Shown here piece by piece: positions 1 through 9,532 of a DNA stretch of 9,532 nucleotides. Below the pieces are notes generated by a model, which saw nothing but the letters and a program-made list of their open reading frames with translations, did not search any database and had not been told where the DNA came from. The stretch is from a virus (lineage: Duplodnaviria; Heunggongvirae; Uroviricota; Caudoviricetes), in the IMG/VR virus record IMGVR_UViG_2778261577_000002, positions 1 to 9,532 of that record. One strand, given 5' to 3'. A program made the translations under genes and the position numbers. Position 1 is the first letter of the stretch; every line of letters begins with the position of its first letter.

Positions 1-55
1 AGTCATCGGGCATTATCTGAACATAAAACACTATCAATAAGTTGGAGTCATTACC
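1..55 (+). mobile_element. IS1: IS1 right-end fragment: last insB codons (2-40, ...KVIGHYLNIKHYQ*) plus terminal inverted repeat ending GGAGTCATTACC at 55
   Basis: Recognised by recall as the canonical IS1 3' terminus; frame 2..40 translates to the InsB C-terminus with TAA at 38-40; the element is cut by the window edge. Confidence 0.93.
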
Positions 56-3351: not shown

Positions 3352-3427
<76 letters not shown>

Positions 3428-3430
3428 TAT

Positions 3431-3505
<75 letters not shown>

Positions 3506-4406: not shown

Positions 4407-4903
4407 TGCCTCCATCATTACGAAAAGCCGTTGCTGCTGCTATTGGTGGCGGAGCAATTGCTATAGCATCAGTGTTAATCACTGGCCCAAGTGGTAACGA
4501 TGGTCTGGAAGGTGTCAGCTACATACCATACAAAGATATTGTTGGTGTATGGACTGTATGTCACGGGCATACAGGAAAAGACATCATGCTCGGTAAAACG
4601 TATACCAAAGCAGAATGCAAAGCACTCTTGAATAAAGACCTTGCCACTGTCGCCAGACAAATTAACCCGTACATCGAAGTCGATATACCGGAAACAACGC
4701 GCGGCGCTCTTTACTCATTCGTTTACAACGTGGGTGCTGGCAATTTCAGAACATCGACGCTTCTTCGCAAAATAAACCAGGGCGATATCAAAGGCGCATG
4801 TGATCAGCTACGTCGCTGGACATATGCTGGCGGTAAGCAATGGAAAGGTCTCATGACTCGTCGTGAGATTGAGCGTGAAATCTGTTTGTGGGGTCAGCAA
4901 TGA
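4406..4903 (+). CDS. R: SAR endolysin (phage 21 R21-like lysozyme, T4-lysozyme fold with N-terminal signal-anchor-release domain), 165 aa
   Basis: N-terminal Gly/Ala-rich weakly hydrophobic SAR segment ([20 protein letters not shown]) followed by a lysozyme core with the catalytic E...D...T spacing ([18 protein letters not shown]). Strong recalled similarity to R21/RrrD. Start overlaps the holin stop (TAATG); stop overlaps the Rz start (ATGA). Confidence 0.93.
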
Positions 4904-5365
4904 ACAGAGTAACCGCGATTATCTCCGCTCTGGTTATCTGCATCATCGTCTGCCTGTCATGGGCTGTTAATCATTAACGTGATAACGCCATTACCTACAA
5001 AGCCCAGCGCGACAAAAATGCCAGAGAACTGAAGCTGGCGAACGCGGCAATTACTGACATGCAGATGCGCCAGCGTGATGTTGCTGCACTGGATGAAAAA
5101 TACACGAAGGAGTTAGCTAATGCGAAAGCTGAAAATGATGCTCTGCGTGATGATGTTGCCGCTGGTCGTCGTCGGTTGCACATCAAAGCAGTCTGTCAGT
5201 CAGTGCGTGAAGCCACCACCGCCTCCGGCGTGGATAATGCAGCCTCCCCCCCGACTGGCAGACACCGCTGAACGGGATTATTTCACCCTCCGGGAACGAC
5301 TGGTAATGATGCAGGCCCAACTTGAAGGTGCTCAGCAATACATAACCGAACAGTGTTTAAAGTAA
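4900..5365 (+). pseudogene. Rz: Rz (i-spanin) pseudogene: in-frame TAA at codon 26 (4975-4977) plus a +1 frameshift in a C7 tract (about 5246-5252)
   Basis: The frame from ATG 4900 gives [25 protein letters not shown] then TAA where lambda-type Rz has Tyr. The same frame continues with Rz-like sequence ([34 protein letters not shown]...[24 protein letters not shown]) until the C-run, after which the Rz C-terminus ([17 protein letters not shown]...) is only readable in the +1 frame. Confidence 0.85.
5120..5365 (+). pseudogene. Rz1: Rz1 (o-spanin lipoprotein) reading frame embedded in Rz; signal peptide and lipobox are intact, but the frame is shifted into the Rz C-terminus by the C7 tract
   Basis: ORF 5120..5365 starts with a typical Rz1 N-terminus ([20 protein letters not shown]...[16 protein letters not shown]) and then reads [11 protein letters not shown]..., which is Rz sequence. 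With six C instead of seven the frame would read ...[20 protein letters not shown], a canonical Rz1 end. Confidence 0.75.
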
Positions 5366-5502
5366 AATCTTAACTACAATATGATTCATTTTGATGATTG
5401 TTTCATAAGGAACAGTGAAGTAAGATCTAAGAGGAGTTAAATTTTATACAGTATAATCATAATATTGCAGCAAGGTGGTTATAATTGAAAGAATATTTAG
5501 AT

Positions 5503-6960
5503 ATGAATACATCTCATGTAAGAGTTGTTACTCATATGTGTGGGTTTCTGGTTTGGCTCTATAGTCTTTCAATGTTGCCACCAATGGTTGTAGCATTGTT
5601 TTATAAAGAAAAAAGCCTGTTCGTTTTCTTTATAACTTTCGTTATGTTTTTTTGCATTGGTGGCGGAGCGTGGTATACAACTAAGAAATCTGGCATTCAA
5701 TTACGTACCCGTGATGGGTTTATTATAATTGTAATGTTTTGGATTTTGTTTTCTGTTATTAGTGCATTCCCTTTATGGATTGACTCAGAACTTAATTTAA
5801 CGTTCATTGATGCTCTGTTTGAAGGGGTTTCTGGAATAACAACAACAGGAGCAACTGTAATTGATGATGTTAGTTCATTACCTCGGGCATATTTGTACTA
5901 TCGGTCACAGTTAAATTTTATAGGTGGTTTAGGAGTTATTGTTCTGGCGGTTGCTGTATTGCCATTATTGGGTATTGGTGGTGCAAAGCTTTATCAGTCA
6001 GAAATGCCGGGGCCATTTAAGGATGACAAACTCACTCCCCGCCTGGCCGATACGTCACGGACACTGTGGATAACTTATTCTTTATTAGGTATTGCTTGTA
6101 TTGTCTGTTATAGACTTGCAGGAATGCCTTTGTTTGATGCTATTTGTCACGGGATTTCCACAGTTTCGCTTGGTGGTTTCTCAACTCATAGCGAGAGTAT
6201 CGGATATTTTAATAACTATTTGGTTGAGCTGGTGGCTGGTTCTTTTTCCCTGCTATCGGCTTTCAACTTCACTCTTTGGTATATTGTTATTAGCAGGAAA
6301 ACGATAAAACCTTTAATCAGAGATATTGAACTTCGTTTCTTTCTGTTAATAGCCTTAGGGGTGATCATTGTTACCTCTTTCCAGGTCTGGCATATAGGTA
6401 TGTATGACTTGCATGGAAGTTTTATTCATTCGTTTTTTCTTGCCAGCTCCATGCTCACTGATAATGGTTTAGCTACGCAGGATTATGCAAACTGGCCCAC
6501 GCACACGATAGTGTTTTTGCTGTCGTCAAGTTTCTTTGGGGGATGTATAGGTTCAACTTGTGGTGGAATTAAGTCACTTCGATTTCTTATACTTTTCAAA
6601 CAAAGCAAACACGAGATAAATCAGCTTTCTCATCCCAGAGCGTTGTTGAGTGTAAATGTAGGAGGGAAGATAGTTACAGATCGTGTAATGAGGTCTGTAT
6701 GGAGTTTCTTTTTTCTTTATACTCTCTTCACGGTGTTTTTTATACTGGTGTTAAATGGTATGGGATATGATTTTCTTACATCATTTGCAACAGTGGCTGC
6801 ATGTATTAATAATATGGGATTAGGTTTTGGGGCTACTGCATCGTCATTCGGAGTGCTTAATGACATTGCAAAATATTTAATGTGCATAGCTATGATTCTT
6901 GGTCGCCTTGAAATTTATCCTGTTATTATATTGTTTTCAGGTTTTTTTTGGCGCTCCTAA
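5503..6960 (+). CDS. trkG: TrkH/TrkG-family potassium uptake membrane protein (Rac prophage trkG-like), 485 aa from ATG 5503
   Basis: Long polytopic membrane ORF, recognised by recall as near-identical to E. coli K-12 TrkG (MNTSHVRVVTHMCGFLVWLYSLSMLPP...). AT-rich compared with its neighbours. An in-frame TTG at 5485 with a well-spaced SD (AGGTGG, 5473-5478) is an alternative start. Confidence 0.93.
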   Translation: MNTSHVRVVTHMCGFLVWLYSLSMLPPMVVALFYKEKSLFVFFITFVMFFCIGGGAWYTTKKSGIQLRTRDGFIIIVMFWILFSVISAFPLWIDSELNLTFIDALFEGVSGITTTGATVIDDVSSLPRAYLYYRSQLNFIGGLGVIVLAVAVLPLLGIGGAKLYQSEMPGPFKDDKLTPRLADTSRTLWITYSLLGIACIVCYRLAGMPLFDAICHGISTVSLGGFSTHSESIGYFNNYLVELVAGSFSLLSAFNFTLWYIVISRKTIKPLIRDIELRFFLLIALGVIIVTSFQVWHIGMYDLHGSFIHSFFLASSMLTDNGLATQDYANWPTHTIVFLLSSSFFGGCIGSTCGGIKSLRFLILFKQSKHEINQLSHPRALLSVNVGGKIVTDRVMRSVWSFFFLYTLFTVFFILVLNGMGYDFLTSFATVAACINNMGLGFGATASSFGVLNDIAKYLMCIAMILGRLEIYPVIILFSGFFWRS

Positions 6961-7046
6961 TATATGGCTGATTTATAATTGTGAGTTTAATATTATGTTG
7001 ACTCACTCATTGATCCAATACCTAACTTTACCAGCAACCCCTCCGT

Positions 7047-7080
7047 CCCCAGTAGCACTGGCTGCTGGGGTGCGTTTTAT
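7047..7080 (+). terminator. Possible terminator after trkG
   Basis: Hairpin CCCCAG...CTGGGG (7047-7052 / 7065-7070) followed by TGCGTTTTATT. The T-run is interrupted, so this is weak. Confidence 0.3.
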
Positions 7081-7097
7081 TCATAAAGCAAGGCTGT

Positions 7098-7889
7098 ATG
7101 AGCGAGAAATTAAAGATAGTCTATCGCCCATTACAAGAATTGCCACCGTATGCGCACAACGCCAGGACGCACAGCCCTGAGCAGGTGGCACAACTGGTAG
7201 AAAGTATTAAGCAATTCGGCTGGACTAATCCGGTGCTGATTGACGAAAAGGGCGAAATTATTGCGGGTCACGGTCGTGTTATGGCGGCTGAAATGCTCAA
7301 AATGGATTCTGTTCCGGTCATTGTTCTGTCTGGCCTGACGGATGAGCAGAAAAAGGCGTACCGCCTGGCAGATAATCGCCTGCCGATGAATGCTGGCTGG
7401 GATGAAGATCTGTTGCGGATGGAGCTGTCGGACCTAATCAATGCTGATTTTGATGTCTCCCTGACAGGCTTCATCCCGACAGAAATTGATGAACTGTTGA
7501 CGGATGTTTTGCCCGGTACAGGAAATGAGGAGGAGCCGTATACGACGAAAATTGATACGCCTGTTTATGAGCCGTCGGGCGGTAAACCGGATATCAGTGA
7601 ACTGTACGACGATACGAAAACTCAGGAGCTGATCAGCCGGATACGTTCGGCGTCCCTTGAGCCTGATATTGAGAAATTCCTCCTGTGTGCGGCAGAACGT
7701 CACACGGTGTTTAATTTCAGCAGAATTGCGGACTATTACGCTCACGCCCCCGCTGAAATCCAGTGTTTTTTCGAGGAGTCGGCGCTGGTGATCATTGATT
7801 ATCAGCAGGCTATTGAAAATGGATTTGTCCGGATGACGCAGCGCATGGTGGAGATCATGCATGGTGGTGAGGAGGAGGAATATGCGTGA
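7098..7889 (+). CDS. ParB-like nuclease-domain (ParB/Srx superfamily) protein with an uncharacterised acidic C-terminal domain, 263 aa
   Basis: N-terminal about 120 aa has the ParB-N architecture (conserved ...NARTHSPEQV...L..SI...GW.NPVLID..GEIIAGHGR..AA motif). The C-terminal part has no methyltransferase motifs and ends GGEEEEYA. The stop TGA (7887-7889) overlaps the downstream start. Related to K-12 Rac ynaK by position. Confidence 0.8.
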   Translation: MSEKLKIVYRPLQELPPYAHNARTHSPEQVAQLVESIKQFGWTNPVLIDEKGEIIAGHGRVMAAEMLKMDSVPVIVLSGLTDEQKKAYRLADNRLPMNAGWDEDLLRMELSDLINADFDVSLTGFIPTEIDELLTDVLPGTGNEEEPYTTKIDTPVYEPSGGKPDISELYDDTKTQELISRIRSASLEPDIEKFLLCAAERHTVFNFSRIADYYAHAPAEIQCFFEESALVIIDYQQAIENGFVRMTQRMVEIMHGGEEEEYA

Positions 7890-8814
7890 TGATTTTTGCG
7901 CCTTTATTCTGACTCACGGGCGACCGGACAAAGTTCTGACTTACCGGACGTTGCGTCGTGCTGGCTATACCGGGAAAATTTTTATCGTTGTTGATGATGA
8001 AGATAAGACACGGCATCAGTACATGGCTGAATTTGGTGAACAGGTGCTGGTGTTTTCCAAAGCCGATATCGCCAGTCGTTTTGACGAAGCCGATAATTTC
8101 TGTGACCGCCGCTCAATTTTTTACGCCCGTAATGCCTGTTTCGACCAGGCAAAACTGGTCGGGTGTAAATACTTCATTCAGCTCGATGATGATTATCACG
8201 AGTTCCAGTTTCGGGTGGATCGCAACTATGACCAGGCCTATTTTCCGATAAGGAAACTGGATGCGATCCTTTCTGAAATGCTGGCGTACTACGAATCAAT
8301 ACCTGCTCTTTCCATCGCTATGTCGCAGGGAGGGGATTTTCTTGGTGACAATGGCGGCCATGCTTCGTGGGTGAAACGCAAGGCAATGAACAGCTTTATC
8401 TGTTCGGTTGATCGACCGTTCTCATTCATGGGGCGCATTAACGAGGATGTGAATACGTACACGAATCTCGGTCGCTGTGGTGAATTGTTTATGACGATCG
8501 GTGCTGTCCAGTTAGGGCAGAAACAGACGCAGAAAAACAGCGGCGGAATGACCGAGCTGTATCTGGATTCCGGAACCTACGTTAAAAGTTTTTACTCCGT
8601 CATGTATGCGCCGTCGTGCGTAAAAATCTCACTGATGGGTGCCAGCCATAAACGCATTCACCATCAGGTCACCTGGAACAACGCTGCAGTAAAAATCCTT
8701 CACGAAAAATACAGGAAGAAGACACCCTGCATATCAATGGGGGTGACAAATGATTCCGTATTCGAAAGTCGAGTCTCTGGCAGCGTGCCGGATGACTGCA
8801 CAACAAATCGCTGA
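7882..8814 (+). CDS. Uncharacterised protein with a GT-A-like nucleotide-sugar transferase signature (N-terminal beta-strand CAFILTHGRP, FIVVDDED, DxD-type motif QLDDDYHEF), 310 aa from ATG 7882
   Basis: The ORF is open from 7861. ATG 7882 is preferred because GAGGAGGAGG lies 5-6 nt upstream and it overlaps the ParB-like stop by 8 nt, suggesting translational coupling; ATG 7861 with SD GGTGGAG is a possible alternative. The fold call is a motif-based inference, not a database match. Confidence 0.7.
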   Translation: MRDDFCAFILTHGRPDKVLTYRTLRRAGYTGKIFIVVDDEDKTRHQYMAEFGEQVLVFSKADIASRFDEADNFCDRRSIFYARNACFDQAKLVGCKYFIQLDDDYHEFQFRVDRNYDQAYFPIRKLDAILSEMLAYYESIPALSIAMSQGGDFLGDNGGHASWVKRKAMNSFICSVDRPFSFMGRINEDVNTYTNLGRCGELFMTIGAVQLGQKQTQKNSGGMTELYLDSGTYVKSFYSVMYAPSCVKISLMGASHKRIHHQVTWNNAAVKILHEKYRKKTPCISMGVTNDSVFESRVSGSVPDDCTTNR

Positions 8815-9001
8815 CGTTCTGGATGTTGATCTGAACCGACTGAAAGAAAATCGGGAAGCAATGACAGATTTTTATGCGGCCATCCGTAAGGGCAGAGCGA
8901 AAGGTGAAGCCGAGTTACGAGCGGCATTGTTTAAGCTTGCCAGAAAAGGGGATGCCTTTGCTCTGCGCGAACTACTCAGGGTGGATAAAAATCAGGACTA
9001 A
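8750..9001 (+). CDS. Small helix-turn-helix protein (83 aa), possibly a packaging-associated DNA-binding protein
   Basis: ORF with SD GGGGGTGA upstream of ATG 8750. HTH-like segment MTAQQIADVLDVDLNRLKE. Overlaps the 3' end of the upstream gene by 65 nt in another frame. Sits immediately upstream of the terminase-like fragment. Confidence 0.5.
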   Translation: MIPYSKVESLAACRMTAQQIADVLDVDLNRLKENREAMTDFYAAIRKGRAKGEAELRAALFKLARKGDAFALRELLRVDKNQD

Positions 9002-9004
9002 CTG

Positions 9005-9178
9005 ATGAGCAGACCGGACTGGGGGGCGTTGCAGCAGGAGTATATTGCTGAATACACCCGCTCCGGTATATCTCCGGTGGCATGGTGTGAAGCAAGGGGA
9101 CTGAATTACGCAACAGCCCGTCGTTACATCAAAAAAACTCCGAAAAATGCGCAGACAGAAATGTGCAAAACTGGGTGA
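9005..9178 (+). pseudogene. N-terminal fragment (57 codons) of a probable terminase small subunit or HTH packaging protein, truncated by IS1 insertion
   Basis: ATG 9005 gives MSRPDWGALQQEYIAEYTRSGISPVAWCEARGLNYATARRYIKK..., resembling the N-terminal HTH of phage small terminase subunits. The frame runs into the IS1 left inverted repeat and ends at a TGA (9176-9178) contributed by the IS1 terminus GGTGATG. Confidence 0.5.
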
Positions 9179-9532
9179 TGCTGCCAACTTACTGATTTAG
9201 TGTATGATGGTGTTTTTGAGGTGCTCCAGTGGCTTCTGTTTCTATCAGCTGTCCCTCCTGTTCAGCTACTGACGGGGTGGTGCGTAACGGCAAAAGCACC
9301 GCCGGACATCAGCGCTATCTCTGCTCTCACTGCCGTAAAACATGGCAACTGCAGTTCACTTACACCGCTTCTCAACCCGGTACGCACCAGAAAATCATTG
9401 ATATGGCCATGAATGGCGTTGGATGCCGGGCAACAGCCCGCATTATGGGCGTTGGCCTCAACACGATTTTCCGCCATTTAAAAAACTCAGGCCGCAGTCG
9501 GTAACCTCGCGCATACAGCCGGGCAGTGACGT
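9174..9532 (+). mobile_element. IS1: IS1 left end (IRL GGTGATGCTGCCAACTTACTGAT) through insA and into the insA/insB junction; truncated by the window edge
   Basis: Recognised by recall as the canonical IS1 5' terminus; same orientation as the IS1 fragment at 1-55. Confidence 0.95.
9229..9504 (+). CDS. insA: IS1 InsA (transposition inhibitor / N-terminal part of the InsAB' transposase), 91 aa, GTG start
   Basis: Translation [91 protein letters not shown] matches IS1 InsA as recalled, apart from one residue (IFRH here, ILRH in the copy I remember). Confidence 0.96.

Follow-up and report, generated by a model that had tools for sequence, protein, structure and literature searches.

An IS1 left end truncates the small-terminase gene of a Rac-like prophage and supplies its stop codon

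The window analyzed here, a stretch of 9,532 bp taken at its full length, is identical to an entire draft contig (NLMO01000108.1, assembly GCA_002229045.1) and carries IS1 sequence in the same orientation at both ends (Table 1). A contig ending in IS1 on both sides is the typical break of a short-read assembly at a multicopy element, and because this one stops inside IS1 at either side, the flanks beyond the two copies are not visible in the window. Pfam matches and gene order identify the DNA between the IS1 ends as the late region of a Rac-like lambdoid prophage, with genes in the order DUF1367, YbcO, antiterminator-Q-like, tRNA-Thr, tRNA-Gly, holin, lysozyme, Rz, trkG, ParB-like ynaK, a TAGT-family gene, a small ORF, and truncated terS. 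The succession of holin, lysozyme, and Rz, then trkG, ynaK, and a ydaY-type gene ahead of the terminase genes is that of a Rac-like late region, as judged against Rac of K-12 and intact relatives. The two tRNA genes are also annotated in PSJ-07, ET82, and A65EC. In the Rz/Rz1 region, the window has a run of seven C residues, compared with six in all relatives compared across the run; the extra C frameshifts the 154-aa Rz (rzpD-like) gene, leaving an 81-aa reading frame as the sole called ORF, and may be either a genuine second lesion or a sequencing error in the homopolymer. Given its match to phrog_309, ‘terminase small subunit’ (profile positions 145-218 of 319, E=8e-23), the small gene immediately before terS may encode a second small-terminase-related protein of the locus.

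Table 1. Features of the window and their coordinates (position 1 is its first nucleotide).
Feature	Position	Strand	Remarks
Other IS1 copy, last 55 bp (…AAGTTGGAGTCATTACC)	1..55	+	100% match to IS1 right ends
tRNA-Thr(TGT) and tRNA-Gly(TCC)	3352..3505		prophage-borne; between the antiterminator-like gene and the lysis genes
Rz/Rz1 region	4900..5365		frameshifted
Called ORF in the Rz/Rz1 region	5120..5365		81 aa
Run of seven C	5240..5246		six C in relatives
ParB/Srx-like (ynaK type) and TAGT genes	7098..8814		overlapping; immediately ahead of the terminase genes
Small gene directly upstream of terS	8792..9001	+	69 aa in RefSeq; 83 aa from ATG 8750; intact in window
Truncated terS pseudogene	9005..9178	+	57 aa; 56 native codons 9005-9172, hybrid Gly codon 9173-9175, TGA
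GCAAAACTG, final 9 native bases before IS1	9165..9173	+	alignment with intact allele
IS1, first 359 bp	9174..9532	+	left part of the element
IS1 left terminal inverted repeat	9174..9196		exact
TGA stop, IS1 nucleotides 3-5	9176..9178	+	read directly from sequence
insA	9229..9504		complete, 91 aa

The original prediction held that the frame opening at the terS start codon enters the left inverted repeat of IS1 and is closed by a TGA belonging to the IS1 terminus, and both the sequence and its alignment with intact relatives show this to be exact. The intact allele of M18 is identical to the window up to G9173, and the break falls exactly after this base: the intact allele continues from GTGCAAAACTG into CGCAAAAAAG and the window from GTGCAAAACTG into GGTGATG (in a longer view, GTGCAAAACTG is followed by CGCAAAAAAGTGCGCAG in M18 and by GGTGATGCTGCC in the window). 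Codon 57 is a hybrid in which the native G and the IS1 bases GG form GGG, with Gly replacing Ala. A stop supplied by IS1 was unavoidable, because every frame that enters its left end meets a stop within the first 27 bases (TGA at nucleotides 3-5, TGA at 20-22, and TAG at 25-27), and the frame decides only which stop is used. The native bases GCAAAACTG stand where an A-rich stretch of terS begins and are those that a simple insertion would have duplicated.

The identity of the element is clear from its left terminal inverted repeat, GGTGATGCTGCCAACTTACTGAT, which also ends annotated IS1 copies in five other loci, and from the complete insA product, which matches the Pfam families Zn_ribbon_InsA (PF03811, 3e-21) and HTH_Tnp_IS1 (PF12759, 1.7e-30). 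The window holds 359 of the 768 bp of IS1, and relatives with the same junction carry complete 768-bp copies. IS1 is moved by the InsAB' DDE transposase; its simple insertions generate target duplications of 8-9 bp, whereas IS1 deletions begin exactly at one end of the element, through intramolecular transposition or recombination with a second copy. The case described here resembles classic IS1 inactivation and adjacent deletion in E. coli in the 768-bp element with its ends (GGTGATGCTGCC… and …GGAGTCATTACC), in the order of insA and then insB', in the stops in every frame just inside the left end, and in the occurrence among the loci compared of both simple insertions with 8-9 bp duplications (the controls described below) and deletions running from an exact IS1 end without duplication. 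It differs in its target alone, codon 57 of terS in a Rac-like prophage, and not in mechanism.

We found that terS is truly cut rather than naturally short, because the nearest complete relative, ET82, has an intact gene of 364 aa and because a 200-bp probe with the break at its midpoint finds continuous sequence in 870 of the 5,426 complete E. coli genomes. The intact homologue, a ‘terminase small subunit’ (WP_000089447.1), is encoded in M18 and ET82, and in M18, PSJ-07, and ET82 the intact gene is followed by a T4-type large terminase, a portal gene, and head genes. Comparison with such relatives had been suggested as the means of recovering the uninterrupted gene, and it confirms that the IS1 end truncates the small-terminase gene of a trkG-carrying Rac-like prophage. 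That IS1 merely adjoins a gene ending naturally at codon 57, with nothing disrupted, is ruled out for practical purposes by homologues that continue to 364 aa with a Terminase_2 domain downstream of the break, by the 870 genomes that read straight through the site, and by a hybrid codon and stop made of IS1 bases.

The intact protein matches Pfam Terminase_2 (PF03592, E=3.7e-08) over residues 122-321 of 364 and phrog_51 over its full length (E=1.7e-75), and with the T4-type large terminase downstream it resembles known small terminases of these families. In contrast, the window product comprises the first 56 residues of the protein and is a pseudogene remnant rather than a functional member: it matches phrog_51 (‘terminase small subunit’) at profile positions 1-57 of 261 only (E=5e-26), and a Pfam search of the 57-aa remnant gave no match above threshold. 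A sequence search of the PDB with intact TerS returned one marginal match, a small terminase (E=0.23). The Terminase_2 domain, which serves DNA binding and oligomerisation and is needed for function, is absent from the window product, and the remnant keeps an N-terminal helix-turn-helix-like module only. As the lysine-rich linker and the whole Terminase_2 domain (about residues 105-321) are gone, the 57-aa product cannot act as a small terminase. The identical remnant in the complete genome AP027829.1 is marked by RefSeq as ‘terminase, incomplete, missing C-terminus’. The proposed inactivation of packaging would follow from this loss and is retained here as a likely consequence, but the further proposal that it helps to explain why the prophage is defective finds less support: truncation of terS alone is probably not the cause, considering that relatives lack the whole head and tail module and that the window has a second IS1 end and a frameshifted Rz.

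Because nine contigs, one of them a complete chromosome, encode the same 57-aa product, the junction is no accident of assembly. A short-read assembler could in principle have wrongly joined terS to IS1 at the repeat, and a draft contig with IS1 at both ends is typical of repeat-broken assemblies; moreover, one related draft contig (L008) may itself hold a wrong path through IS1. However, a false join would need terS and IS1 to have sequence in common where they meet, which they do not, and the identical junction recurs in one complete chromosome and eight other contigs from separate assemblies, which makes an artefact very improbable. An exact-match scan for the junction in contigs representing one genome per species gave no match.

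AP027829.1 (strain 2017.17.03CC) is the only complete genome that contains this junction as a single continuous stretch. The IS1 there has the full length of 768 bp, is flanked by GCAAAACTG on the left versus AGAAATCTG on the right, and thus has no target duplication. The far flank of this IS1 maps to position 1,435,075 of K-12, 67 bp beyond ttcC and about 110 bp from uspF, which falls outside the annotated right end of Rac. From this genome the remainder of terS is missing, together with terL, every head and tail gene, and the right attachment region. Three further IS1 copies show a comparable arrangement: one at terS codon about 338 in KH_005, one at terS codon about 160 in J6, and one in the small gene upstream of terS in WEM25 each lack a duplication and border a deletion of downstream prophage DNA. 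As a separate observation, the IS1 copies in or just before terS in these three genomes (loci L003, L004, and L006) all have the same orientation, with the left end toward the terS start, and in all three the downstream morphogenesis genes are deleted and trkG is kept, the numbers being too small for a test of orientation bias. Control copies of IS1 with 8-9 bp duplications were found in ynaK of MB06173 and twice in A65EC.

These comparisons suggest that the IS1 of the window somewhat more probably marks the border of a deletion or rearrangement mediated by IS1 than a simple insertion that duplicated its target. The preference is drawn from relatives rather than from the source genome, because the draft contig ends inside IS1. 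In addition, the window differs from the deletion-bearing clade of AP027829.1 at base 8 of IS1 (C versus A) and lies on a different prophage haplotype, and for these reasons the deletion history of that clade need not apply to the window. The original prediction had expected an 8-9 bp direct repeat at the other end of the IS1. This now appears doubtful, and the repeat may not exist, because AP027829.1, where the IS1 is fused beside uspF, has none and the reciprocal junction was found nowhere.

A simple insertion would imply an otherwise complete terS with a 9-bp duplication of GCAAAACTG, and would place the remainder of the gene, terL, and the morphogenesis genes on another contig of the assembly. 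The canonical left repeat of the window IS1 is consistent with this, as are the terS, terL, and head genes still present in ET82, the closest complete relative, which makes the event recent on this haplotype, and the occurrence of simple insertions with 8-9 bp duplications among other IS1 copies in such prophages. Nevertheless, the reciprocal junction is present in none of the 5,426 complete genomes or the two contig collections, and each of the four IS1 copies that complete genomes carry in the terS region adjoins a deletion and has no duplication. Specifically, a constructed query joining the IS1 right end, GCAAAACTG, and downstream terS was covered by 0 of 5,426 complete E. coli genomes, and an exact pattern of the IS1 right end, 7-11 bp, and downstream terS was found in neither species-representative genomes nor JGI metagenomes, a weak negative given the few E. 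coli strains there. We therefore regard a simple insertion as somewhat less likely and continue with a deletion or rearrangement edge as the preferred reading.

For the alternative route to a deletion, recombination between two IS1 copies, we asked whether an IS1 had already occupied the uspF-side site of AP027829.1, and the junction was found in that genome only; among 28 other genomes with IS1 near uspF, the position differed in all those listed. The draft contig L008 (78 kb) joins terS-IS1 (IS1 at 5491-6258) to the ETT2 type III secretion cluster and was considered as a second deletion or rearrangement. It was rejected, since the complete genome of the clade, AP027829.1, holds the same IS1-ETT2 junction apart from terS-IS1, at 1,808,492-1,808,791. 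The join in L008 is likely an assembler mis-path through IS1, or else a real IS1-IS1 inversion.

Whether the junction arose once or twice is evenly poised between one ancestral junction, moved between haplotypes by homologous recombination, and two independent IS1 hits at the same nucleotide. Between ET82 and the window there are four differences in 4880-9173, none of them in 7144-9173, and the window haplotype is ET82-like. The other carriers (L007, L008, and L010) all have an M18-like haplotype, carry an IS2 ahead of the holin gene, and show A instead of C at base 8 of IS1, and both haplotypes have representatives with intact terS (ET82 and M18). The base-8 change lies in the left inverted repeat (L001 6775-6803, L008 5491-5519, and L010 5113-5141, all of the AP027829.1 clade) and is absent from every other IS1 copy fetched, including that of the window, which has the canonical base. 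The change serves as a marker of this clade and might hinder further transposition of the copy that carries it. A single origin is supported by the identical break point and orientation, by the 842 bp before the junction (8332-9173) that are identical between the window and the AP027829.1 clade and leave room for a recombination breakpoint, and by the visible mosaicism of Rac-like prophages. Conversely, five SNPs in 7752-8331 separate the window from the other carriers, each carrier matches an intact-terS relative (M18 or ET82) instead, and base 8 of IS1 differs between carriers.

Exact reuse of a target occurs elsewhere in the prophage, which counts against the need for a single origin. The left IS1 of the window abuts CAATAGTTG (56-64), and A65EC has an IS1 flanked by that same 9-bp sequence as a duplication. 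As the A65EC copy has the opposite orientation at the same 9-bp target, it is independent of the window copy, and the use of CAATAGTTG by both makes exact target reuse plausible in this prophage. A tentative extension, with the odds slightly against it, is that the codon-57 site of terS, like the one at the left, marks an exact hot spot at which IS1 has landed independently in separate E. coli lineages, and that IS1 repeatedly strips Rac-like prophages of their packaging and morphogenesis module through adjacent deletions that spare the trkG part. If so, IS1 would be a recurrent agent of prophage domestication at defined nucleotides.

Taken as a whole, the reading we favor has a probability of roughly 0.88. 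The left end of IS1 became joined to terS of a Rac-like lambdoid prophage exactly after base 9173, and translation from the terS start now enters the IS1 repeat by two bases before ending at the IS1 TGA. The resulting 57-aa product without a terminase domain would leave the prophage unable to package DNA, and the rest of terS with the head and tail genes would have been removed by an IS1-mediated deletion or rearrangement, which we consider more likely than a simple insertion. The damage in the source strain probably extends well beyond terS. Since the nearest intact relative, ET82, is almost identical, the event is recent; the earlier description of the junction as a datable scar is borne out in its precision, although the dating is relative only.

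The locus is an ordinary pseudogene made by IS1 as a Rac-like prophage decays. Standard annotation already flags such cases, and beyond annotation the weight of this one is little, as it accounts for one pseudogene. A literature search combining Rac prophage, IS1, and terminase found nothing related. The comparisons nonetheless suggest recurrent erosion of Rac-like prophages by IS1, often at target sites reused to the exact base, with the morphogenesis module lost and trkG retained. They also illustrate that IS1 at the edges of draft contigs conceals whether a gene has been interrupted or a whole module deleted.

Rac of K-12 offers the most familiar point of comparison. It shares with the window the late order of lysis genes, trkG, ParB-like ynaK, and a ydaY-type gene, and its chromosomal neighbourhood (ttcA … uspF-ompN) is seen in AP027829.1 and A65EC. 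However, K-12 lost terS and the head genes by another deletion, with ydaY followed by a tape-measure remnant (ynaA), and the insertion sequence there is an IS5 in lomR, whereas the window keeps the start of terS and has IS1 as the boundary. Upstream of the terminase genes, the window has a full-length 263-aa ParB/Srx-like gene of the ynaK type that overlaps a gene of 310-317 aa, which matches Pfam TAGT (TET-associated glycosyltransferase, E=1.4e-34) and is named ‘GREB1-related protein’ in RefSeq. The two may form a DNA-modification pair, of which K-12 keeps fragments alone (ynaK and ydaY).
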